Source: a virus
Length of the DNA stretch: 28,737 nucleotides
IMG/VR virus record: IMGVR_UViG_3300009514_001427
Strand: one strand, 5' to 3'
Below are positions 3,345-26,508 of this stretch, one piece after another. The first letter of the stretch is position 1; the number at the start of each line of letters is the position of its first letter. Both the position numbers and the translations under genes were made by a program. The notes beneath the pieces are model-generated. The model worked only from the letters and a program-made list of their open reading frames with translations. It was not told where the DNA came from and ran no database searches.

Positions 3345-5210
3345 ATGTCCAAAACCACCTTGACTTTTGAGGCTCACGAAGCCCTCATTATCAGCAACAT
3401 CGAGCGTCAAGCTGGCTCGGTTGGCAAGGCAATTCTTGAAGGGACGATGAATGGCATCGAAGCCTGTAACAAGGCGGATGTCTCACCCCAAGTCTGGATT
3501 CACTTCGATTCCAATGGAGCGGCTGTAGGCGAATCTGGAGCGGTCCTGCGGATCAAAGACCTTGGCTGTGGAATTCAGACGAAGCAAGAGATTCTGGATT
3601 GGTGGAAAACCTTTGGTACGCCTCACGCCGAATCCGAGAAAAAGATTTGGGCTAACTTCCGTATGGGGCGTGGGCAGTTATTCACCTACGGTCGCAACAT
3701 CTGGCGTACGGGGACGTTCCGTTTGGAGTATGACCACAATACTCCGCCTGTCGAGAGAAACTACGAATCTGACCAGCGTATCCAATTCGGATTGGAAGAG
3801 AATCTCGATGCGTTTGAAGGTTGTGAAATCGAGATTCACTTTTACAAGAATCCTGTTGGGCCTGGTGGTTCTTATGCTTCCGTTGAGGCATTGAAAGCTG
3901 ACGTAAAGCAGCAGATCGAATTCATGGAGGGAGCGATCTACTTCAATGACGAGCAGATCAATACTCCTGCGAGTTGTTGTAAGTGGGATGACGAGACGGA
4001 CGATGCCTACTTCCTGTGGGGCATTGGTACGGAGCTAACGGTCTACAACATCGGGGCGTACGTTTGTGGTTACTCGATCAGCCGCATGGGCGTTAGTGGC
4101 ATCGTGGTATCGAAGAAACAGATGCGTTTGAATTACCCGCGCAATGCGGTCATGCAAGATGCCTGTCCGATTTGGCGAGACATTCGTGACATCGTGGATT
4201 CCAAAAAGGTCACGAAGATTCGAGCGACATCGCGTCGATTGGAGTATGACGAGAAGGTTGCGAATCTCATTGATTTGCGTGATGGGAAATGCACTCTTAA
4301 AGACATTAACGGCGTTGGTTTGTTGGAAACATCTAGTGGCAAGGCTATGTCACTTCCTGCCTGCAAGTCTATTCGTTCTCATTGGACGTTTGCTCCCAAG
4401 GGCGACATGGTTGCGGATCAGCTTATGCAAGCTGGCAATGCCGTTTGCTTGTCAGACAAAGTTTTGCGGGAAATGAATTATACTGGCGATCCTGCTGGAT
4501 TCTTCGAGTATCTATTGCAGGAGGAAATCCGCAAGGCTCAGCCACGTTGGAGCGATGATACTGATAAGAATCGGGTACTCAAGGCGTGGAAGCATCTACG
4601 CAAGCTGTATCGTCCGTTTGATTCTGGTTGTGACGATGACCTATGCAATCAGTACAACCGCCAGCATACGATCATTCCAACGGAGAAGCTGTCGAAGTTT
4701 GAGCGTCGAGTCATTCGGGTCTTGTCGGCTTATGATTGTTGGCAAGGTCGTACCATCGTGATTGGTCTTAGCGATTGCTACAACGGTTGGACCGATGGAG
4801 ATTCTTACATTGCGATCAACCGCAAATACTTGAAGCGTAACTCCCCGAATTACTATCATGGAGCGTCGGCTATCGTCACGCTAATGTTTCATGAGTTGGC
4901 TCACGACGAAGATAATACCGAGACAGACGTTCATGGTCTTGAGTTTTACAAGGCGTATCATGACCTTACTCGTCATGGGAATACATGGATGATCGCAGAC
5001 ATCTACGAGAAGTTGAAAGCTGCTAAGGTCGAAGATTACGATGAAGAGCAGAAGGCGAAAGCTGCCAAGGCGAAAGAGAAGCGTGACAAGAAACTGCGGG
5101 TAGCTGCTGCCTTGAAGCCGAAAAAGGTGGCGGCGTCGATCACTCACAAGCCGACGAAGAAAGCGGCTCCCAAGACGGCTAAGAAAAAGCGTCGAGTTCG
5201 CAGATTTTAG
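3345..5210 (+). CDS. GHKL-type ATPase domain protein with a C-terminal HExxH motif and a lysine-rich H1-like tail
   Basis: N-box EALIISNIE/EGTMNGIEA, G1 box IKDLGCGI and G2 FRMGRGQLFTYG are consistent with a Bergerat fold. FHELAHDE gives an HExxH motif. The C-terminus is KAKAAKAKEKRDKK…KPKKVAA…KKKRRVRRF. AAGGGAG at 3331-3337 precedes ATG 3345. Confidence 0.75.
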   Translation: MSKTTLTFEAHEALIISNIERQAGSVGKAILEGTMNGIEACNKADVSPQVWIHFDSNGAAVGESGAVLRIKDLGCGIQTKQEILDWWKTFGTPHAESEKKIWANFRMGRGQLFTYGRNIWRTGTFRLEYDHNTPPVERNYESDQRIQFGLEENLDAFEGCEIEIHFYKNPVGPGGSYASVEALKADVKQQIEFMEGAIYFNDEQINTPASCCKWDDETDDAYFLWGIGTELTVYNIGAYVCGYSISRMGVSGIVVSKKQMRLNYPRNAVMQDACPIWRDIRDIVDSKKVTKIRATSRRLEYDEKVANLIDLRDGKCTLKDINGVGLLETSSGKAMSLPACKSIRSHWTFAPKGDMVADQLMQAGNAVCLSDKVLREMNYTGDPAGFFEYLLQEEIRKAQPRWSDDTDKNRVLKAWKHLRKLYRPFDSGCDDDLCNQYNRQHTIIPTEKLSKFERRVIRVLSAYDCWQGRTIVIGLSDCYNGWTDGDSYIAINRKYLKRNSPNYYHGASAIVTLMFHELAHDEDNTETDVHGLEFYKAYHDLTRHGNTWMIADIYEKLKAAKVEDYDEEQKAKAAKAKEKRDKKLRVAAALKPKKVAASITHKPTKKAAPKTAKKKRRVRRF

Positions 5211-6253: not shown

Positions 6254-6756
6254 TGTACGTCGTAGTTGTCAACGAAGATAACATTCTGCGTGAAGTGGTT
6301 TGCGTCACCAAAGATGCGAAGGTGGCTGAGGATCATTTCCTTGATGCCTGCAAGACCAATAGCAGTAATTGGGATGAGTATGAAATCGAGGATGTGGCTG
6401 CCTTTCTAGAAGATGCGTATTACCAGTTTGGCAATCAGGCTGTCGTACTGATGGATGTCTCGAACGTCAAGAGTGACGCCGAGATACTGGCTGAGCTTGC
6501 CAAGACGCCACCACCGGGCGTCCACAAAATCACCAACTGGATTCGCTCAGGAGAGATTGGCGAAGTCGATACCATCGAGGAAGTGATCGGTCGAGCAGGA
6601 ACCCTACTGGACAAAGCCTGTTCGCATGAAATCTTCGGCGATGTGGTATTTGGGGCTGAGGATGGCAAGGTCTACGTCTTGACCTGCGAGGGACAAGTGG
6701 GTCTTATCGCCAAGGATTACCTTGAACAGATCAGAGATGAGGATAACGATGGCTAA
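6253..6756 (+). CDS. hypothetical protein, 167 aa
   Basis: taATG overlap with the upstream stop; GAGG RBS. Confidence 0.6.
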   Translation: MYVVVVNEDNILREVVCVTKDAKVAEDHFLDACKTNSSNWDEYEIEDVAAFLEDAYYQFGNQAVVLMDVSNVKSDAEILAELAKTPPPGVHKITNWIRSGEIGEVDTIEEVIGRAGTLLDKACSHEIFGDVVFGAEDGKVYVLTCEGQVGLIAKDYLEQIRDEDNDG

Positions 6757-11999: not shown

Positions 12000-12155
12000 A
12001 TGAGAGAGCAAACCACCCCAATCTTATGGGAACGACTCAAGACCTTGCGAGAGAAACTTGCTCGCTTGGTCAGAGCAGGTAAACGTGGCAAGCTCAGAGA
12101 CTGGCGTGAATACAATCTCGTAGCCCGCGTCATTATGCGACGGAGAAAAGCCTAA
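12000..12155 (+). CDS. small basic protein, 51 aa (MREQTTPILWERLKTLREKLARLVRAGKRGKLRDWREYNLVARVIMRRRKA)
   Basis: Leaderless ATG at +7 from the -10. The stop TAA overlaps the next ATG (taATG). It falls below the track's length cutoff. Confidence 0.45.
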   Translation: MREQTTPILWERLKTLREKLARLVRAGKRGKLRDWREYNLVARVIMRRRKA

Positions 12156-12460
12156 TGCCTAAACCAGAATTCAAAACCGAGTGGGAAAGCGATACATACG
12201 ACAAGGCACACGAAGCCATGTCTGCACTGCTCAACCTTGCCAACGGCATGGGCAGTAGCAAGGCAGTGGTAGCAGGTATGCTCGATGGATTCCTCAGCGA
12301 GCACCGTACACTGCAACAGGCAGGAGTACGCAACTTCGTGGGTATGCTTAAGGAGTGGACGAAGTTTAGCGAGCCTGCTATGACAGACCTGCGTAACCAG
12401 GATGCGTGGAAATTCGCAAAGCAGGTTGTCGAGCTTGACCCAATGTTTGCGAATGTTTAG
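12155..12460 (+). CDS. hypothetical protein, 101 aa
   Basis: GGAG at 12142-12145; taATG coupling. Confidence 0.6.
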   Translation: MPKPEFKTEWESDTYDKAHEAMSALLNLANGMGSSKAVVAGMLDGFLSEHRTLQQAGVRNFVGMLKEWTKFSEPAMTDLRNQDAWKFAKQVVELDPMFANV

Positions 12461-12471
12461 TCCATTTCTTC

Positions 12472-12499
12472 TTGACATTTCTTGTGGCCGTGGTATACT
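12472..12499 (+). promoter_or_regulatory. sigma70 promoter P12 (class II, with upstream TTTCTTC), leaderless
   Basis: TTGACA 12472-12477, TATACT 12494-12499, ATG 12506. Confidence 0.7.
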
Positions 12500-12505
12500 A
12501 TAGAC

Positions 12506-12823
12506 ATGAACGACAACAAGACAATCGACGAAGCGGCTCAGGCAATCGACGATCACCAGTCGATGGTCGAATCCCGCACCGATAGGGAAATCTTCGCGGA
12601 GATGAATGAGATGGACCAGCCCAAAGTAACGGACTTCACCACAACCGTACCAGCAGAAAAGAGCGGCTTCGATGTCCGCGTGAAACTGGATAGCCGATGG
12701 GTCACAGTCGGCAATCATCCTACCCGCGAAGATGCAGAGCGAGCGGAATTGGCTCTTAGCCAAGTGATGATCGAATACAGGACCAAGCGCAACGCATGGG
12801 AGAACAGCCATGCCAACAGTTAG
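12506..12823 (+). CDS. hypothetical protein, 105 aa
   Basis: Leaderless ATG; in frame with track ORF 12482..12823. Confidence 0.6.
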   Translation: MNDNKTIDEAAQAIDDHQSMVESRTDREIFAEMNEMDQPKVTDFTTTVPAEKSGFDVRVKLDSRWVTVGNHPTREDAERAELALSQVMIEYRTKRNAWENSHANS

Positions 12824-12829
12824 AGCGAC

Positions 12830-12857
12830 TTGACATTTCCGCTCTATGAGGTATACT
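12830..12857 (+). promoter_or_regulatory. sigma70 promoter P13, leaderless
   Basis: TTGACA 12830-12835, TATACT 12852-12857, ATG 12864 (+7). Confidence 0.7.
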
Positions 12858-12863
12858 AAAACT

Positions 12864-13088
12864 ATGGGACTAACAGTTGACAAGAAAGACTCGCCTCAAG
12901 CTGAGCGAATCATTAACGCGGGCAAAGAAATAACCAAACTGGTCCGCGAAACGGTCTATGCTGACCGACATTCAAGAAACTGTGCTACCGGGGCGCATCC
13001 CAATCGCTGGACGGATGCAGCGAGGAAACGGGATGACGCCGTGAAGTTTTTGAAGGAGCGACTGCAACAAATAGCAGAAGAAATCTGA
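12864..13088 (+). CDS. hypothetical protein, 74 aa
   Basis: Leaderless ATG in frame in ORF 12846..13088. Confidence 0.55.
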   Translation: MGLTVDKKDSPQAERIINAGKEITKLVRETVYADRHSRNCATGAHPNRWTDAARKRDDAVKFLKERLQQIAEEI

Positions 13089-13125: not shown

Positions 13126-13163
13126 TTGGGTAACGACGGCAAGTTACTTGAAGGGAGCTAAAA

Positions 13164-13625
13164 ATGCCACAAATCAGACGAGATGAAATGGTCGTGGGAA
13201 TGCAGGCGGTTAAAACCGTCCAGTCCGCAACTTGGAGACGCCGTGGCGATAAGGTCGTCAACCGTTGCGTCAACTGTGAGTCTGAGACAGCCACCCATGA
13301 GGGCGAGCGATTCTGCAACCACTGCAACTGCTTTGTCCCAACGTACAAGAGTACGGAAGCTGCCGAGGGCGATCTTGTCACGATGCAGTTTATTCCCCGT
13401 ATCAATCCCAACGGGACCAAAAACTGGACCCCCGCTGGCGGTGAATGCTTCGGCGTAGCAACCAGAGCAGAGGCAGACGCGATCAAGCGTAAGCATGGTC
13501 TGGTTGGCGTCCTCAAGATGTCCGAGACTGCCACTGGCGACATGCGGGCTTTGCCACGAGTTATCCCGGTGGATGATGTGGTGACATGGAAAGCCGAGGG
13601 AGTAGAATACGAAGTAGTCGATTGA
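13164..13625 (+). CDS. zinc-ribbon protein (CVNCESETATHEGERFCNHCNC), 153 aa; paralog of the gene at 22006..22506
   Basis: AAGGGAG at 13151-13157. The two paralogs share MQAVKTVQS.TWRRR.DK.V.RCV.CE.ETATH.G.RFCN.C, MQFIPKINP.GTKNWTPAGG and a …EGVEY.VVD C-terminus. Confidence 0.7.
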   Translation: MPQIRRDEMVVGMQAVKTVQSATWRRRGDKVVNRCVNCESETATHEGERFCNHCNCFVPTYKSTEAAEGDLVTMQFIPRINPNGTKNWTPAGGECFGVATRAEADAIKRKHGLVGVLKMSETATGDMRALPRVIPVDDVVTWKAEGVEYEVVD

Positions 13626-13716
13626 AACTATGGGAGCGTAGGAGAAGCAGGGTAGGCGTACGCAACGCCCTGTGGCGACCGATATGTGATATACGGCACT
13701 GTTGGCAGGACGCTGC

Positions 13717-13728
13717 CAGAAATAAGCA
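13717..13728 (+). repeat. CAGAAATAAGCA motif variant, copy 3
   Basis: 10/12 match. Confidence 0.45.
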
Positions 13729-13931
13729 GTGCAATGTGGGGTTGGCACCCACCGCTCCCAGCCAGAACGCGTCAGAGTTGGCACGGTTCTAGAACGTGTA
13801 ACCGAAGGCATTCGGTGATGGGCATTGCGTAGGATAGGTGGGAGGCGCTGATACCTGCATTCCGGTGTAGATGAGCCATCCTTGAAATACCACCCTTTGC
13901 CCGGCAACTCTTATTTTTGTTCATTTTCTTC

Positions 13932-13959
13932 TTGACATTTCTCCTGGCCGTGGTATACT
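13932..13959 (+). promoter_or_regulatory. sigma70 promoter P15 (class II: gttcattttcttcTTGACATTTCTCCTGGCCGTGGTATACT)
   Basis: TTGACA 13932-13937, TATACT 13954-13959. Confidence 0.7.
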
Positions 13960-15582: not shown

Positions 15583-16194
15583 ATGCTGGCAAAAACAATC
15601 ACTTTCGCAGACGGACGCAAACTGGAGATTCATAGGGACGAACATCCAGAATCCCCGCGTGAATGGGACAACAACGGTATCATGGTCTGTTTCGCACGTC
15701 GCTACAATCTCGGCGACAAGCATGACCACAAGACGCCAGACGACTTCCGTGAATGGCTGAAAGAGCAAGACGTTATCGCTCAACTGCCGTTGTACTTGTA
15801 CGATCATTCCGGTATCACCATGAGCACCGGACCTTTCTCTTGTCCGTGGGATTCAGGTCAAGTCGGTTGGATCGTCGCTACCCGCGAATCGCTCGAATCT
15901 GGTGGACACGACGTAGACAAGCTGGACGTAGCCAAGGTCGAAACGTGGCTCCGTGGCGAAGTAGAGACTTACGATCAATTCCTTCGCGGGGACATTTACG
16001 GATTCATCCTTCGCAAGCCAATTGATCCACCTTGCGAGACTTGTGGACGGGAAGACGATGAAGGCGAAGAAGAATCATCGTGTTGGGGATTCTACGGCGA
16101 CAATCCGCTTGAGAATGGAATGGCGGATAGCTTCACCGACGAACAGCGTGCAGAATTGAAAGCTGGTACTTGCAAAGAAGTTTGCGCATATTAG
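15583..16194 (+). CDS. hypothetical protein, 203 aa
   Basis: AAGGGAG at 15570-15576. The stop TAG abuts the next -35. Confidence 0.7.
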   Translation: MLAKTITFADGRKLEIHRDEHPESPREWDNNGIMVCFARRYNLGDKHDHKTPDDFREWLKEQDVIAQLPLYLYDHSGITMSTGPFSCPWDSGQVGWIVATRESLESGGHDVDKLDVAKVETWLRGEVETYDQFLRGDIYGFILRKPIDPPCETCGREDDEGEEESSCWGFYGDNPLENGMADSFTDEQRAELKAGTCKEVCAY

Positions 16195-16197
16195 CCC

Positions 16198-16225
16198 TTG
16201 ACATTTTGGGCGTATGTGGTATACT
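16198..16225 (+). promoter_or_regulatory. sigma70 promoter P19, drives a non-coding transcript
   Basis: TTGACA 16198-16203, TATACT 16220-16225. Confidence 0.65.
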
Positions 16226-16412
16226 TCAAGAGAATGAGAGACGGCAATAGGGACAACAAGGTACAGGAGATGAAACCATGAAGTCGTAAACGAACCCCGT
16301 CAAGCAACTGATAATGAGATGAATGAGACAAAACCCAAAGGGCAACCCAGACGCGACCCAATAGTAACGTGATAAAGATCGCACGACTGGATAGCCCTTT
16401 CGGGGCACCGCA

Positions 16413-16442
16413 GCGGGGGCTGAAATAAGCCCCCGCTTTTCT
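16413..16442 (+). terminator. rho-independent terminator (gcgggggc-TGAAATAA-gcccccgc-TTTTCTT)
   Basis: Perfect 8-bp GC stem, 8-nt loop and a T-run. Confidence 0.8.
16420..16431 (+). repeat. CTGAAATAAGCC motif, copy 5 (forms the loop of a terminator)
   Basis: Exact 12-mer. Confidence 0.6.
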
Positions 16443-16464
16443 TGTTCATACACTGATTTTGAAC

Positions 16465-21937: not shown

Positions 21938-21965
21938 TTGACTATTCCGTCTCATGTAGTATACT
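21938..21965 (+). promoter_or_regulatory. sigma70 promoter P30 (TTGACT-16-TATACT)
   Basis: TTGACT 21938-21943, TATACT 21960-21965. Leader is ctatgtagacgacggttactcaaacAAAGGGAGCTAGACAATG. Confidence 0.6.
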
Positions 21966-22005
21966 CTATGTAGACGACGGTTACTCAAACAAAGGGAGCT
22001 AGACA

Positions 22006-22506
22006 ATGCCAAACATCAGCCGACAAGACTTTATCGCAGGGACACAAGCGGTTAGGACGATTCAGTCGATAACGTGGCGTAGACGATCCGACAAGATTGT
22101 CAAGCGTTGCGTACAATGCGAAGCCGAAACCGCTACGCATCGGGGACAACGATTCTGCAACGCTTGTGACGAATTCGTCGCAACGTATGACGCCAAAGAA
22201 GCCGAAGCGGGCGACGTAGTACGGATGCAATTCATCCCGAAAATCAACCCCGAAGGCACGAAAAATTGGACGCCCGCAGGTGGCTTTATTTTCAACGCTC
22301 CGACCCGCGAAGCCGCCGAAGCTATCAAACGTCGCAAGGGCTTGATTCAATGCCTGAAAATGGGCGAGCAAATGCCCACAAACGACGCGGACGAGATTAG
22401 GGCAATGATCGACGCTGGCGACCTGAAAGCCTTACCGCGTTGTTTCGGAGCGTATGACGTAGAAACATGGACCGCCGAAGGCGAAACGTATACCGTCGTG
22501 GATTAG
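22006..22506 (+). CDS. zinc-ribbon protein, 166 aa; paralog of the gene at 13164..13625
   Basis: AAAGGGAGC RBS. CVQCEAETATHRGQRFCNACDEF. Confidence 0.7.
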   Translation: MPNISRQDFIAGTQAVRTIQSITWRRRSDKIVKRCVQCEAETATHRGQRFCNACDEFVATYDAKEAEAGDVVRMQFIPKINPEGTKNWTPAGGFIFNAPTREAAEAIKRRKGLIQCLKMGEQMPTNDADEIRAMIDAGDLKALPRCFGAYDVETWTAEGETYTVVD

Positions 22507-22524: not shown

Positions 22525-22560
22525 AGCGGGGGACGGTCCCCCGCTCGCTCCGCTCGCTTT
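22525..22560 (+). terminator. terminator-like hairpin (agcggggg-acggt-cccccgct) with a weak T tract
   Basis: 8-bp GC stem, then …cgcTTTcc. Confidence 0.4.
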
Positions 22561-22661: not shown

Positions 22662-22689
22662 TTGACATTCGCTCCCTATGTAGTATACT
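22662..22689 (+). promoter_or_regulatory. sigma70 promoter P31
   Basis: TTGACA 22662-22667, TATACT 22684-22689. Leader is tatattgacgacggtaggaaactcgaaccAAAAGGGAGCTAACAATG. Confidence 0.7.
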
Positions 22690-22733
22690 TATATTGACGA
22701 CGGTAGGAAACTCGAACCAAAAGGGAGCTAACA

Positions 22734-23672
22734 ATGACAAAGCAACGCAAAACAAAAGGCGACGTTTACCAGTGGATCACCGAACGAATGATCGCGGCAT
22801 TGGAAGCGGGAACGGTCCCGTGGCGGCGTCCGTGGTTGCTGATGAACGCCCCGGCGAATCTCATATCGGGCAAAACGTATCGCGGCGTCAATCTGTTTTC
22901 GCTCGCTATCGCTGGCGAAAAATACACTAGCCGATGGTGGCTGACTGCCAAGCAAGCCCGCGACCGTGGCGGTCACGTCCGCAAGGGCGAACGGTCGTCG
23001 ATGGTGGTTCGTCCGCTAGTCGGTGAGAAAACGAAAAACGGTCAGCCCGTACTCGACGCCAACGGCAAGCCACAAAAATACTTCGGTATGCGATACTCGA
23101 ATGTTTTCAACGTCGAGCAATGCGAGGGAATCGAGTATCCCAAGCCCGAAACCGGCAAGCCCGTCGATACGCTGGAAGTCTGCGAAAACATCATCGGCAA
23201 TTGGACCGATTGCCCGCCAATTGGTTACGGTGGCGACCGGGCGTATTATTCGCAAAGCGACGACCGTATCCAAATGCCAATGCGTGACACTTTCGAGGGA
23301 TCGGAACGATTCTACTCGGTCCTATTCCACGAATGTATTCACGCGACCGGACATAAGTCTCGGCTCAATCGTGACCTAACTGGACACTTCGGAACGTCGG
23401 ACTATGCCCGCGAGGAACTCGTTGCCGAAATGGGCGCAGCTTTCCTATGCGGCGTGGCGGGAATCGAATGCAAGACGGTCGATAACTCGGCAGCGTATAT
23501 CGCTAACTGGTTGCAGCGATTAAAAAACGATCATAAGCTAGTCGTCACTGCCGCCAAGCAAGCGCAAGCGGCGGCGGAGAGTATCCAAGGCATCGAAGCT
23601 CCGAAGTATGACAGCGAACCGCAAGATGGAAACGAGAGTGCCAACGCGATGGCACAAACCGTAGCGGCGTAA
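22734..23672 (+). CDS. ardC: ArdC-like antirestriction protein (N-terminal ssDNA-binding DUF1738-like domain plus C-terminal zincin metalloprotease, HExxH = FHECIHATGH)
   Basis: N-terminal …VPWRRPW…GKTYRGVNLFSL… and C-terminal HECIHATGH…ELVAEMGAAFLC are typical of ArdC/TraC1-N proteins as recalled from memory. Confidence 0.8.
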   Translation: MTKQRKTKGDVYQWITERMIAALEAGTVPWRRPWLLMNAPANLISGKTYRGVNLFSLAIAGEKYTSRWWLTAKQARDRGGHVRKGERSSMVVRPLVGEKTKNGQPVLDANGKPQKYFGMRYSNVFNVEQCEGIEYPKPETGKPVDTLEVCENIIGNWTDCPPIGYGGDRAYYSQSDDRIQMPMRDTFEGSERFYSVLFHECIHATGHKSRLNRDLTGHFGTSDYAREELVAEMGAAFLCGVAGIECKTVDNSAAYIANWLQRLKNDHKLVVTAAKQAQAAAESIQGIEAPKYDSEPQDGNESANAMAQTVAA

Positions 23673-23982
23673 GACTCACCACCGAGGCGGGCGGGTGCCA
23701 GACCAGTGGCACCCCGCTCGCCGCATACCTTAGACAGTGCCACGAGCATGGCACGCAAAGCGCGGAATTGAATAAGAACAAAAACCAAACAAAAAGTGTT
23801 CAAAATTTTTTGCAAATGACATACATTCTCCCACCCCTTTTGAACTTTCGGTTCCATATTTGCTCGCCGGGGGGTGTCCCCATCTGAAGCAAGCTAGCTG
23901 TGTGCATAAGGGGTATGGGTATGTCCTCCGGTGCAAACGCGGGTCCCTTTTTGCGTAGCCGAGGGTGCCCTGGCTGATGGTA

Positions 23983-24023
23983 CCAAAAAATAGGAGCCGC
24001 TCCATTGGTCAGAGACGGCTCCT
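23983..24023 (-). terminator. rho-independent terminator on the minus strand
   Basis: On the + strand the sequence reads ccAAAAAAT-aggagccg-N16-cggctcct. On the - strand the 8-bp stem is followed by ATTTTTTGG. Confidence 0.5.
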
Positions 24024-24156
24024 GGTGATGCTGCCACTCGGGCAGATGGGCTAGTGGTGTAGTAGGCAGTATGACTGGGGCTGGTGGTGATGTCAATAAA
24101 AAAGCGCGGATAAAATATGGCTGTTTTTGTGAAGTTTTCGCGGAAAATTGGCGTCC

Positions 24157-24184
24157 TTGACATTTCTGTGAGATGTGGTAGAAT
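24157..24184 (+). promoter_or_regulatory. sigma70 promoter P32 (TTGACATTTCTGTGAGATGTGGTAGAAT), leaderless
   Basis: TTGACA 24157-24162, TAGAAT 24179-24184, ATG 24191 (+7). Confidence 0.55.
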
Positions 24185-24190
24185 TTTGGC

Positions 24191-24814
24191 ATGATAGATC
24201 ACTCGATAGATGAATTGCGTGGCCACGCGGATTATCATGGCGTGAGGAAAATTGCCGATCTGATGTTGGATGATCCTCGCTTTATCGTATGGAGTGGTTC
24301 ATCTCATGAGGGTCAGCATCATCACGGTACTGGGGGATTGGTCACTCATGTCTCTGAAGTTGTACATATGTGCATGCTCTTGAAAAACGAATGCTATCCA
24401 GATCTGGATGAGAAGGTATTGTTCTTATCAGCTCTGTTGCATGACTGGGGCAAGCTTTGGGATTACGAGCCTTGGGATTACGGTTCCACAGCAAAACCAT
24501 TGAAGGCATGCGTGATAACTGACCCGAAACTAATCGATCAGCATACCAAATGGCGCGGGGCTCCTCACAAGCGGAACATTCATCATATCAGTCGATCTGC
24601 CATTGAGTGGAGCAAGGCGGTTGCTCTCACTGGGGAATGCAAAGACATTGAGGAGCAGGTCACTCATGCGATTCTGGCTCATCATGGTCAGAGGGCATGG
24701 GGATCACCAGTGGCTCCCAACAGTCGTATTGCATGGCTCTTGCATTGTTGCGACATTATAAGTGCTCGCATGGCAGATTGTGAAACGCTGGATTATCTCA
24801 AGTTCCGGAAGTAG
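24191..24814 (+). CDS. HD-domain metal-dependent phosphohydrolase, 207 aa
   Basis: The H…HHHG…H / LLHDWGK / ILAHHGQ motifs are consistent with the HD superfamily. Confidence 0.75.
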   Translation: MIDHSIDELRGHADYHGVRKIADLMLDDPRFIVWSGSSHEGQHHHGTGGLVTHVSEVVHMCMLLKNECYPDLDEKVLFLSALLHDWGKLWDYEPWDYGSTAKPLKACVITDPKLIDQHTKWRGAPHKRNIHHISRSAIEWSKAVALTGECKDIEEQVTHAILAHHGQRAWGSPVAPNSRIAWLLHCCDIISARMADCETLDYLKFRK

Positions 24815-25007
24815 TAACTACATCTCCTGGTTGCGGGTCCAGGAGGGTGACGTCTTCGACAGATGCTTGGGCAAACGTAGCTTCAGGGACAAGCGTTGTT
24901 TGTTTGAGGGTTTCTTCGATATCGGCTCTGACGGCTCCAGCGAGTCCGAGGCATCCTTGATCTTTCTCTAGTTTGACGGTCACTTCGTACTTAACGATTC
25001 TGCTCAT
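24798..25007 (-). CDS. hypothetical protein, 69 aa
   Basis: On the minus strand AAGGAG lies 8 nt upstream of the ATG (rc of 25008-25025). Convergent with the HD gene. Confidence 0.5.
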   Translation of the reverse strand: MSRIVKYEVTVKLEKDQGCLGLAGAVRADIEETLKQTTLVPEATFAQASVEDVTLLDPQPGDVVTTSGT

Positions 25008-25099
25008 ATCTGGGTCTCCTTTGAGGGGAAGTATACGACATGAGAGAGAAATGTCAAAAGGGGTGTTCTAAAAAATTTCGCGGGTAATAGAGGGCTGTT

Positions 25100-25771
25100 T
25101 TAAGCGTTTGAGGGGTGGTTTTGTCCTGTGTCAAAACGCTTTTGGGTGTGGCCGAGGATTCCTTCACGGGCATGGCAGAGGAATGAGAGTTTCTTACCAT
25201 TTTGGAGTCTTTGGATGATATTGAGTTTTTCTCGTTGGAAGTTCTTTTCCCACCAGTGGACGGATCGTCTTGTGGTGAGTAGGGAGAAGTCTTTGTAGGG
25301 GGTATTCTTGAGATACTTATCTTCTTCGGTTCCATCGCAATCGCTGACCAGAATCCAGACATAGCCTACCCCGACTCGCTTCAGTTCAGCGATTGCTTTT
25401 TGGGTATCTGGTTCTGGTATACGATCTAGCAGATGGGTACAGATCACGAGATCGAATTGGTCATCGGGGTATGGTAGTTCTTGAGCATTGGCTAGTTTGA
25501 GATCTACGTCTTTGATATCGACTTTGTTCAGGGCTTCTTGTGAGAAGTCTACGCCATGGCATTGGACTTGTGGTCTTGTATGTTTGACCCATTTGATAAG
25601 TTGTCCTGAGCCGCAACCGACATCGATCATGGAGTTAAAGGCGAGTGGTTGAATGACTTGTACGTACTCGAATGCTCTGAGTGGGCTATTGCCATAACTG
25701 GGGCATTGTGCATGTACATGGTCATAGAGTTGTTTCAGATCTGGTGGTGGTTGGTTTCTTTTGGTTCTCAT
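25100..25771 (-). CDS. class I SAM-dependent methyltransferase, 223 aa
   Basis: Motif I IDVGCGSGQL, HGVDFS and FDLVICTHLL. A TATAAT lies immediately upstream of its ATG on the minus strand. Confidence 0.8.
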   Translation of the reverse strand: MRTKRNQPPPDLKQLYDHVHAQCPSYGNSPLRAFEYVQVIQPLAFNSMIDVGCGSGQLIKWVKHTRPQVQCHGVDFSQEALNKVDIKDVDLKLANAQELPYPDDQFDLVICTHLLDRIPEPDTQKAIAELKRVGVGYVWILVSDCDGTEEDKYLKNTPYKDFSLLTTRRSVHWWEKNFQREKLNIIQRLQNGKKLSFLCHAREGILGHTQKRFDTGQNHPSNA

Positions 25772-25776
25772 ATGAG

Positions 25777-25799
25777 ATTATACACGAAGCGCGTATAAT
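25777..25799. promoter_or_regulatory. divergent promoter region with inverted repeat ATTATACACG-aag-CGCGTATAAT (9/10 match); each arm carries a TATAAT
   Basis: Seen directly. Face-to-face -10 boxes for the MTase (-) and the gene at 25819 (+). Candidate operator. Confidence 0.4.
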
Positions 25800-25818
25800 G
25801 ATGGGAAGGAGATTTGAG

Positions 25819-26508
25819 ATGCCACAAATACTTGAAAAGCAGCTTCATGCGGATGGTACTGAGGTTGAGGATATAGAGACGTTGAATCCAGCGGTGGAAT
25901 CGATGGAGGATTTCATTCGTGACAGTGGGTTGCGCATGGAGGTATTGCCAGTTCACGAGAATCCGTATCGTCATCCAGCGGATCAGGCTACGGCGTATCA
26001 TTATTCATGCAAGCTAATAAACGCGGAAAATAGATGGTTTGTTGTTTATTTTTCCAAGGGTCCTGGGTTGCGTTTGTGGCAGTCTCCTCCGGACGAGTTT
26101 GAGGCATCGGGTAAGCCGTTGCATGTTCCGTTGGTGAATGTTGGGACTCAGTACGATGGTCCGTTGCCTCCATTTGAGGGGGAGAATGCGGAATATGATG
26201 AGAACATTTACACTAAGTGTTCTGTACCTGCTCCACCGAATATTTTTGAGGTTTTGGATTGTGTAGCGAATGATTGTTATACGGTGGAGATCACTGGGGT
26301 ATTTGAGGGTTGGTGCAATTTGATGCGGGCTCACATTGACAGTATTCATGCCAAGAAGACTTTTGAGACATGTTCACAGCATCGTTTGAAGTTGTTGGCG
26401 TTGTTGGGTGAGGAGTTGTATCACCGTTTGATTCATGAGATGGACCGCAAAGTAGTTGTTCCTGAGACTGAAGAAGAAGAAGAAGAGGGGTCTGATGAAG
26501 ATAATTGA
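25819..26508 (+). CDS. hypothetical protein, 229 aa (C-terminal acidic EEEEEEGSDEDN)
   Basis: AGGAG at 25806-25810 precedes ATG 25819, in frame in ORF 25681..26508. Confidence 0.6.
   Translation: MPQILEKQLHADGTEVEDIETLNPAVESMEDFIRDSGLRMEVLPVHENPYRHPADQATAYHYSCKLINAENRWFVVYFSKGPGLRLWQSPPDEFEASGKPLHVPLVNVGTQYDGPLPPFEGENAEYDENIYTKCSVPAPPNIFEVLDCVANDCYTVEITGVFEGWCNLMRAHIDSIHAKKTFETCSQHRLKLLALLGEELYHRLIHEMDRKVVVPETEEEEEEGSDEDN

Follow-up and report, generated by a model that had tools for sequence, protein, structure and literature searches.

An ArdC-family gene with a predicted promoter of its own in the promoter array of an unclassified large element

We analyzed a stretch of 28,737 nucleotides (hereafter the window, taken at its full length) from the IMG/VR virus record IMGVR_UViG_3300009514_001427. 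The window lies on a 153-kb contig of an unclassified element, which has close relatives on contigs of 256 and 557 kb. The open reading frame (ORF) at 22734–23672, which opens with ATG on the plus strand and encodes 312 amino acids, is almost certainly a member of the ArdC family. Taking all the evidence together, the best explanation, in which we place moderate confidence, is that this ArdC homologue belongs to the immediate-early genes of a large mobile element, likelier a huge phage, and would serve there in antirestriction. The ArdC call itself is ordinary: the family is known in plasmids and has been reported in large phages, and the gene is a further environmental example of it. The value of the finding lies in its setting, where conserved anchors and variable content recur across at least five related metagenomic contigs, the surroundings being more unusual than the gene.

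Family, fold and active site of the ArdC protein

The two domains of ArdC were both recognized by Pfam, with ArdcN (DUF1738, PF08401) matching residues 10–125 (E-value 5.8e-26, 91.6 bits against a cutoff of 22.6) and MPTase-PolyVal (PF18818) matching residues 163–276 (1.6e-41, 141.8 bits against a cutoff of 27.5). PHROG 7245, annotated as "anti-restriction protein", matched residues 6–304 (2.1e-74). A phmmer search of the Protein Data Bank (PDB) returned the ArdC protein of plasmid R388 (6I89 and 6SNA) as the sole matches (E 1e-47), and residues 5–286 of our protein are collinear with residues 3–286 of R388 ArdC. We modeled the structure with AlphaFold2 (AF2) from 58 homologues. The model has a predicted local distance difference test score (pLDDT) of 86.5 and a predicted template modeling score (pTM) of 0.84; the acidic C-terminal tail, residues 297–312, appears disordered (pLDDT <50). 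The top matches of the model in Foldseek were again 6I89 and 6SNA (E 2.6e-22, template modeling (TM) scores of 0.71/0.79, 35% identity), and the next match followed at an E-value of 0.075.

Judged from the sequence, the N-terminal domain would be of the type that binds single-stranded DNA (ssDNA) in R388 ArdC, and the C-terminal domain is a zincin of the Spartan/SprT-like kind whose active site is complete. Residues H199, E200, H203, E227, and E228 align with H201, E202, H205, E228, and E229 of R388 ArdC and are invariant in the alignments of 14 and of 58 relatives. In R388 ArdC, H201, H205, and E229 are the metal ligands, and the roles of catalytic base and of orienting H205 fall to E202 and E228, respectively (Gonzalez-Montes et al., 2020; PMC7213743). 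The sequence-only reading of the window had called the gene ArdC, with an ssDNA-binding domain and an HExxH protease. Both Pfam domains, the PHROG, the PDB matches and Foldseek agree with this call; ArdcN and an intact HECIH zincin correspond to the two proposed parts, and the DUF1738/ArdC profiles, which that reading had suggested as a check, matched far above their cutoffs.

The search for ArdC homologues gave 6785 scored matches, and the identical protein (P0001) is encoded on a 153,040-bp contig of the Joint Genome Institute (JGI). The closest ArdC among deposited phages shares 46.5% identity (range 37–47%), and Hymenobacter plasmids reach 47%. ArdC was found in 3169 PLSDB plasmids, 1778 of which are conjugative. 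ArdC homologues are also annotated in phiCbK-like phages, and several phage homologues carry the label "DNA primase".

The promoter array, the ardC unit and related contigs

The ardC gene lies near the distal end of a long series of near-identical promoters. The strict motif TTGACA-N16-TGG-TATACT occurs 33 times in the window, compared with 0.07 copies expected from first-order Markov simulations of the window (mean 0.07, maximum 2), and the consensus of the copies reads C-TTGACA-TTT..N..A-TGTGG-TATACT-nTAGnCA. The sole copy on the minus strand is located at 25057–25030, and the other 32 form an array driving 45–50 or so mostly small genes over approximately 24 kb (Table 1). In 11 of the 32 plus-strand promoters, the ATG opening the ORF stands exactly 6 nt past the -10 hexamer; since the predicted transcription start is the A of this ATG, these 11 mRNAs would be leaderless. 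The remaining units have leaders of 18–47 nt with a strong Shine-Dalgarno site. Because nearly each small gene has its own near-consensus promoter of the same host type, the array can reasonably be regarded as an early region, plausibly an immediate-early one. Within it, ardC is the second-last unit and the gene for an HD-domain protein the last. The earlier statement that a long series of small early genes ends with ardC therefore needs a small correction: the distal position in a same-strand run stands, and this layout recurs in relatives, but the array runs one unit further. Long minus-strand ORFs at 12–22 kb (e.g., 12152–12883 and 13158–13907) were rejected as genes and are best seen as artefacts, given their low codon-usage scores, the A-rich plus strand, and the homologues found for the plus-strand ORFs.

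As far as can be read from the DNA, ardC would be monocistronic, with a near-consensus promoter of host type to itself and a GC-rich hairpin on either side, and thus stands apart rather than being the tail of an operon. The hairpin upstream of the ardC promoter is possibly a terminator, albeit one with no clear U-tract, and the strong hairpin downstream of the gene is probably a terminator, likewise with no U-tract on the plus strand. A box of the GACGACGGTA type, together with the same type of leader, also stands ahead of the ArdC or ArdC-like genes in two of the related loci described below (L001 and L112). More generally, a box GACG(AC)GG/ACGGTA is found approximately 5–15 nt past the -10 hexamer in eight leaders of the window and may be an operator or an element of the 5′ untranslated region (5′-UTR) marking a co-regulated subset. 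The sequence GGAAACTCGAACCAA is common to the leaders of ardC and of the DUF932 gene.

Five related metagenomic contigs of 43–257 kb were read in part, with approximately 20 kb readable per contig; individual loci are designated by L and a number. L001, from a 42.7-kb contig, encodes an ArdC with 68% identity to that of the window. L112 and L115 come from the 256,855-bp contig Ga0452210_000013 (L115 spans 94.9–115.7 kb), a contig of 557,248 bp encodes these proteins as well, and L112 is collinear with the window from 14.8 to 28.6 kb. Sizes of 54, 68, and 257 kb are found among the lineage contigs of L115, L117, and L107. The promoter motif is present in 16 copies in L001, 17 in L112, and 14 each in L114 and L108. 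A run of small plus-strand ORFs ends in an ArdC or ArdC-like gene in L001, L108, and L112/L113, and in L001 and L112/L113 the next gene after this slot is a syntenic methyltransferase gene on the minus strand. A metagenome scan with patterns taken from the ArdC alignment, which proved over-general, gave identities of at most 51% among the matches listed, with L027 as the sole member of the lineage.

Gene turnover between close relatives is high. The window has 13–15 of about 50 proteins in common with L001 or L112. The zinc-ribbon gene that adjoins ardC in the window is separated from the ArdC slot by four to five extra cassettes in L112 and L001. In L001, L112, and L114, the homologue of the ORF at 25681–26508 is part of the array and precedes the ArdC slot, and this location on the opposite side of ardC shows a rearrangement. 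The ArdC slot itself is also variable. In L112/L113 it is occupied by a divergent ArdC-like gene whose product matches ArdcN at an E-value of 8e-4, below the cutoff, has no MPTase-PolyVal match, and keeps an HELMH motif. This gene stands behind the same promoter and a GACGACGGT leader, with flanking genes that are 50–72% identical to their counterparts; L117 holds a further divergent copy (Table 1). The slot in L112 has either diverged very fast or received a replacement allele.

Downstream of ardC, a 484-nt gap (23673–24156) contains no convincing ORF. A conserved non-coding block lies within it and is present once downstream of the ArdC or ArdC-like gene in the window, L001, L027, L107, L108, and L112/L113. 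Because a 4-bp hairpin is its sole consensus structure, with almost no covariation, the block looks like a DNA site or promoter and not like a folded RNA; it may be an origin, an origin of transfer (oriT), a pac site, or a special promoter. A likeness to a sigma54 promoter (TGGTNCC-N5-TTGC) was rejected, the -12 GC being unconserved in four of six aligned copies. Searches of the block against plasmids gave no significant similarity (best E 0.4). A 32-nt match with 88% identity upstream of ssb in the Sphingomonas sp. AAP5 plasmid p150 (NZ_CP037915.1; L118 6001–6034) was dismissed as being at chance level (E 0.4). The gap as a whole had no match to known RNA families and folds somewhat better than shuffled sequences on both strands (z of -2.5 and -2.7).

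Table 1. Features of the window and of related loci. Positions are those of the window unless a locus is named.
Feature	Position	Strand	Remarks
Promoter array	156–24184	+	32 near-identical copies, median spacing 682 nt, about one per small gene
RuvB homologue, divergent, full-length	611–1690, probable start 731	+	NCBIfam RuvB 193 bits, E 5e-57, below equivalog cutoff of 282
Leaders with the GACG(AC)GG/ACGGTA box	starts 3303, 13126, 15544, 17848, 18907, 21209, 21966, 22690	+	include ardC and both zinc-ribbon paralogues
621-aa protein	3345–5210	+	HELAH zincin-like motif C-terminal, "DLGCGI" GHKL-ATPase-like string N-terminal, both by eye
DUF932/TIGR03299 "phage/plasmid-like protein", 338 aa	10837–11853	+	Pfam 4e-21; TIGR03299 2.4e-22
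Zinc-ribbon/beta-barrel paralogue, 153 aa	13164–13625	+	61% identity to the copy at 22006
23S rRNA L1-stalk mimic, 91 nt	13816–13906	+	Rfam LSU_rRNA_bacteria 51.4 bits, E ~1e-12, model positions 2125–2216 only
Gene upstream of ardC, with promoter	21938–22506	+	coding sequence (CDS) 22006–22506, 166 aa
GC-rich hairpin GCGGGGG-ACGGT-CCCCCGC	22527–22545	+	past the stop of the preceding gene, ahead of the ardC promoter; read from sequence
ardC promoter, sigma70-type, TTGACA-16 nt-TATACT	22662–22689	+	11/12 consensus matches
ardC 5′ leader, 44 nt	22690–22733	+	GACGACGGTA box near predicted start; Shine-Dalgarno GGGAGC 7 nt before ATG
ardC CDS	22734–23672	+	ArdcN nt 22761–23108; zincin MPTase-PolyVal nt 23220–23561
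ardC active-site codons	HECIH nt 23328–23342; E227/E228 nt 23412–23417	+	sequence and R388 alignment
Strong GC-rich hairpin	23686–23722		14 nt past the ardC stop; in both minimum free energy (MFE) and centroid folds
Conserved non-coding block, GACATA-N20-ACTTTCGGTTCCATATTTG-hairpin-...TAGCTGTGTG	23818–23906	+	single copy, 28 invariant columns
Last array unit	24157–24814	+	promoter TTGACA-16-TAGAAT at 24157–24184, leaderless ATG 6 nt on, HD protein
HD-domain protein, 207 aa	24191–24814	+	Pfam HD 23 bits against cutoff of 22
Minus-strand module bounding the array	24798–25771	-	methyltransferase 25100–25771; 69-aa gene 24798–25007, which has the minus-strand promoter copy (25057–25030)
Divergent ArdC-like gene, 309 aa	L112 12128–13057 = L113 4317–5246		25% identity to the window ArdC, E 6e-8
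Divergent ArdC-like gene	L117 2157–3029		resembles the L112 copy in divergence

Function of ArdC and nature of the element

R388 ArdC is needed in the recipient cell, where it counters HsdRMS in P. putida and E. coli, and its protease is dispensable for antirestriction, as shown with the E229A variant (PMC7213743). For the element studied here, host RNA polymerase would transcribe the whole array, ardC included, once the double-stranded DNA (dsDNA) of the element is in the cell. By analogy with the ArdC proteins of R388, pSa, and RP4, the protein would be made in the newly entered cell, bind ssDNA, and shield the incoming element from type I (HsdRMS-type) restriction. We give this antirestriction function, argued from these plasmid homologues, a little better than an even chance.

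As for the carrier, we lean toward a huge phage as the more likely reading because of the uniform and strong promoter array, the genes for ribosomal protein S21, cold-shock, and PstS-like proteins, the intein-containing helicase, and the published ArdC genes of huge phages. Downstream of the array, relatives of the L112/L115 type have genes for ParB_N, a dual-specificity phosphatase, an Hc1-like histone, and an outer-membrane protein (OMP)-like Phenol_MetA_deg protein; a polynucleotide kinase (PNK)-like kinase is also encoded among the contigs of L115, L117, and L107. The helicase of the relatives comprises 1488 residues and is split by a LAGLIDADG intein, and a PstS-like binding protein is also encoded. 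The more distant L117 (SDBT01000399.1, a 67.8-kb contig) carries genes for PcfJ, S8 peptidases, ribosomal protein S21, and a cold-shock protein. A further clue that leans toward a phage comes from an isolated mimic of the 23S rRNA L1 stalk in the window (see below): the only other isolated copies that we found are on three IMG/VR contigs (L002–L004), where a comparable element lies beside a terminase-like ORF, labeled by eye from the translation. Weak hints, namely the source names of some ArdC matches, the Hc1 domain, and the OMP-like protein, point to hosts among the Planctomycetota or the wider Planctomycetes-Verrucomicrobia-Chlamydiae (PVC) group; the last of these has a 30%-identical cellular homologue in Candidatus Laterigemmans.

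A megablast search with 25 kb of the window matched no phage, and tblastn of the concatenated ORFs gave, among the matches listed, RuvB-like proteins alone in phages; in plasmids it gave homologues of the ORF at 15583–16194, which belongs to PHROG 6186, alone. Deposited phages and plasmids share at most RuvB-like, DUF932, or PHROG-6186 homologues with the window. Scanning GTDB genomes with ArdC peptides revealed no lineage member, and pattern scans likewise met none in cultured phages. Walks along the 256-kb and 67.8-kb contigs met no virion or transfer genes, and a PHROG scan of their larger ORFs was uninformative.

Several observations weigh against an immediate-early antirestriction gene of a huge phage. 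Approximately 130 kb of window and lineage loci showed no gene for a capsid, a terminase, or a tail, no portal gene was found in the window or the readable parts of the relatives' contigs, and IMG/VR scans with peptide patterns from the ArdC, zinc-ribbon, and OMP-like families found no lineage member. ArdC does not discriminate between phage and plasmid, the best identities being 46.5% and 47%, and conjugative elements, too, typically carry ArdC, DUF932, ParB_N, and PcfJ. The early timing is deduced solely from the promoter sequences. R388 ArdC acts in conjugative ssDNA entry, whereas a dsDNA phage exposes little ssDNA on entry, and we found no experiment on any phage ArdC in the papers searched. 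Finally, the protease is dispensable in R388, yet the active site is strictly conserved here, which suggests a second activity or target.

This last point leads to a different role for the protein, which could belong to the ArdC family by descent and act as an ssDNA-binding accessory factor in replication or priming, as a Spartan/SprT-like protease clearing DNA of cross-linked or bound proteins, or as a protease on a host protein outside restriction-modification. The closest structural relatives of the C-domain of R388 ArdC are the DNA-dependent proteases Spartan and IrrE, and the N-domain is also part of the TraC1 primase (PMC7213743), in line with the "DNA primase" labels of phage homologues. 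An active site invariant in 58 relatives though dispensable in R388 may be selected for another purpose, and the upstream neighbor has a WYL/Sm-like fold of a type known to bind ssDNA or RNA. However, Pfam detects no TOPRIM/primase domain in the 312 residues, and a promoter of immediate-early type before ardC is more in keeping with a conflict gene than with a housekeeping factor of replication, as are the placement among fast-turnover cassettes and the extreme divergence of the slot, which is 25% identical between close relatives, compared with 50–72% for neighboring genes. We consider such a role unlikely. Combining an invariant protease site with a 25%-identical allele, the lineage is well suited to finding the actual target of the ArdC protease. 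Alternatively, the carrier could be a giant conjugative plasmid or an integrative and conjugative element (ICE), the window being its leading region, ArdC guarding the entering ssDNA, the array supplying establishment and anti-defense genes, and the conserved block representing oriT/nic. We judge this reading to be a serious rival, though rather less probable than a huge phage and a shade likelier than a role outside antirestriction. The occurrence of ArdC in conjugative plasmids, the DUF932/TIGR03299 "phage/plasmid-like" family, the PcfJ and ParB_N of the relatives, and the failure to see virion genes or IMG/VR lineage members would all suit it. Leading-region anti-defense genes are reported exclusively on one strand relative to oriT (PMC11541004), a pattern that 32 of 33 promoters on one strand would match. 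The block, present in single copy with a small inverted repeat followed by ...TAGCTGTGTG and always beside the ArdC slot, is an oriT candidate by position alone, but it has no significant similarity to plasmids. No relaxase, coupling protein, type IV secretion system (T4SS), or ssDNA-binding protein (SSB) gene appeared in any locus read; specifically, Pfam families of relaxase and T4SS were missing from the window, L001, L107, L108, L112, L114, L115, and L117 at approximately 20 kb per contig. The promoters are ordinary double-stranded sigma70 promoters rather than hairpin ssDNA promoters of the Frpo type, and more than 24 kb with 32 strong promoters and 11 leaderless genes more closely resembles the early region of a lytic phage than the leading regions known to date, to the former of which the relatives' S21, cold-shock, and PstS-like proteins and intein-containing helicase also point.

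The sequence-only reading had further proposed that the small genes upstream of ardC form an anti-defense island, in which several zinc-ribbon ORFs, the DUF932 protein, or the HD protein would be inhibitors of defense. The DUF932-like protein is real by both Pfam and TIGR03299, and many small ORFs indeed contain zinc-ribbon-type CxxC pairs in their translations (e.g., those starting at 6722, 10197, 13164, 13978, 14716, 14862, 19597, 22006, and 28179). The HD hydrolase has an HD match, but the assignment is weakly supported, with a Pfam score just above the cutoff. We compared concatenated translations of all other ORFs (about 50) with Pfam, PHROGs, and PDB, and the larger ORFs also with NCBIfam and PADLOC. 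No other known anti-defense or defense protein was found among them with these general libraries, whose sensitivity for small, fast-evolving proteins is limited; ArdC is the sole anti-defense match in any of the five, where an island would call for at least two recognizable anti-defense genes. Beyond the families already named, the scans gave RuvB-like ATPase, methyltransferase, and YhaM-like HD similarities and four further PHROG families of unknown function. Given the limited sensitivity and the general libraries, the screen fails to support the island rather than refuting it. To our knowledge, DUF932, HD, and methyltransferase genes have no established anti-defense role.

Small genes with a strong immediate-early-type promoter per cassette, the gain and loss of cassettes between conserved anchors, the two very divergent alleles at the ArdC slot, and a bona fide antirestriction homologue would all be compatible with an island. 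Against it, no component of a defense system that might serve as a decoy was matched either, host takeover, transcription shutoff, and nucleotide metabolism are likewise functions encoded in the early regions of lytic phages, zinc ribbons do not single out anti-defense proteins, the HD protein is closest to the YhaM exoribonuclease domain, and the methyltransferase is of the small-molecule/RNA type. An island remains doubtful, though somewhat less so than a conjugative leading region, and we describe the neighbors as fast-turnover early cassettes that may include host-takeover and anti-defense genes. The approximately 45 self-contained cassettes of promoter and ORF, clonable as they stand, make a candidate list for such functions. 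A bolder and rather speculative variant of the huge-phage reading, which we hold to be unlikely, takes the window as the immediate-early region of an unrecognized lineage of giant elements, likeliest huge phages with possibly Planctomycetota or PVC hosts. It would comprise about 45 shuffling cassettes, an ArdC slot as a fast-evolving anchor beside a DNA site (origin, entry end, or oriT), and non-protein weapons such as the L1-stalk mimic. If true, ArdC would be the sole recognizable piece of a largely new toolkit for host takeover and anti-defense.

Other features of the window and comparison with known systems

The protein encoded directly upstream of ardC probably consists of a small beta-barrel (Sm/WYL-like) core with an inserted CxxC...CxxC zinc ribbon. 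Together with its paralogue it belongs to a family of 31 members, all metagenomic, some of which lack the CxxC...CxxC insert; two members occur on contigs of 10,427 and 5,376 bp, as do two ArdC homologues. The predicted fold gives a hint, not a strong one, of ssDNA or RNA binding. The closest named relative of the HD protein is the HD domain of the YhaM exoribonuclease (NCBIfam YhaM model 7e-13; PDB YhaM 9h3f 1.2e-7). The methyltransferase at 25100–25771 on the minus strand is a class I S-adenosylmethionine (SAM)-dependent enzyme of the small-molecule/RNA type and not a recognized DNA methyltransferase. From approximately 25.7 kb onward, plus-strand genes have no promoter copies, lower G+C (0.44–0.47), and a higher GC skew (up to 0.32). 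At the 5′ end of the array, the RuvB-like AAA+ ATPase has P-loop, lid, and winged-helix domains, with no RuvA nearby. The 621-residue protein found no family match in Pfam, PHROGs, NCBIfam, PADLOC, or PDB.

The L1-stalk mimic lies in a non-coding gap of approximately 300 nt between the zinc-ribbon/beta-barrel paralogue and the promoter at 13932, and it is not part of an rRNA gene. We take the matched Rfam positions to be the L1 stalk, helices 76–78. The universally conserved strings GUAGGAUAGGUGGGAGGC and UUGAAAUACCACCC are intact. In a pairing alignment that sets four genuine 23S genes beside the window copy and a second phage-borne copy, pairing holds in 89.8% of cells, compared with 34–46% in slid controls, and compensatory changes affect 14 of 28 pairs, including seven of eight in the terminal hairpin (the fourth helix, presumably H78). 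An attempt to deduce the host from the fragment failed, as three Alcaligenaceae 23S genes alone share the flanks of H77; H78 differs in these same three genes, so that the fragment is no recent capture from a host rRNA. We found no literature on such a mimic, which may titrate ribosomal protein L1 or act as a decoy for a ribosome-targeting host factor.

Two further observations concern non-coding stretches. In the gap after ardC, a promoter-like TTGACA-17-CATACT on the minus strand (24096–24068) faces a hairpin at approximately 23999–24037 with a T-run on the minus strand; by its sequence, this pair (24096–23999) would give a transcript of no more than some 70 nt with no annotated feature opposite it. 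The equivalent terminator of L001 is bidirectional and lies at the end of a 208-residue minus-strand gene. Within the array, the promoter at 16198–16225 and a canonical terminator at 16412–16437 on the plus strand enclose approximately 210 nt with no plus-strand ORF of at least 20 residues. A Shine-Dalgarno site and ATG that are kept in L112 and L114 open no more than a 3-codon ORF in the window, a cut form of the ORF that relatives seem to have at this place; the stretch (16198–16445) represents a cassette that has decayed or else a small RNA.

Among known systems, ArdC of the IncW plasmid R388 (6I89, 6SNA; Gonzalez-Montes et al., 2020; PMC7213743) has the same two-domain build at approximately 35% identity, with the same metal ligands and catalytic glutamate (here H199/E200/H203/E228, plus E227). 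Unlike R388, a small conjugative plasmid, the carrier here is an unclassified element of at least 153 kb with no transfer genes in view, and ardC has a private consensus promoter in an array of 32 and encodes an acidic disordered tail. A recent study reported 102 ArdC genes in huge phages from 101 genomes (bioRxiv 10.1101/2025.02.27.640493). Like the protein described here, the ArdC proteins of phiCbK-like Caulobacter/Brevundimonas phages and of huge phages stand alone, comprise about 300 residues with the key residues conserved, and come from many habitats, and their antirestriction role is likewise assigned by homology alone. The window shares 37–47% ArdC identity with deposited phage carriers and no other gene, save RuvB-like/DUF932 homologues elsewhere.

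The anti-defense islands described from the leading regions of plasmids (Samuel et al., 2024; PMC11541004) resemble the array in being one-strand runs of small genes with an antirestriction gene, presumably expressed first. They differ from the window, where no oriT, relaxase, SSB, PsiB, ArdA, KlcA, anti-CRISPR, or Frpo-type promoter was found and a single recognizable anti-defense gene is present.

The immediate-early region of T4, the pre-early region of T5, and the class I region of T7 with Ocr combine strong and similar sigma70-type promoters, small ORFs, and an antirestriction function. We found no sequence similarity to phages of the T4, T5, or T7 types. The window is nevertheless like these early regions in its many mutually similar sigma70-type promoters, its small ORFs, and its antirestriction gene, and it differs from them in having approximately one promoter per gene, an unusually uniform extended consensus, and a third of its units leaderless with a fixed 6-nt geometry.

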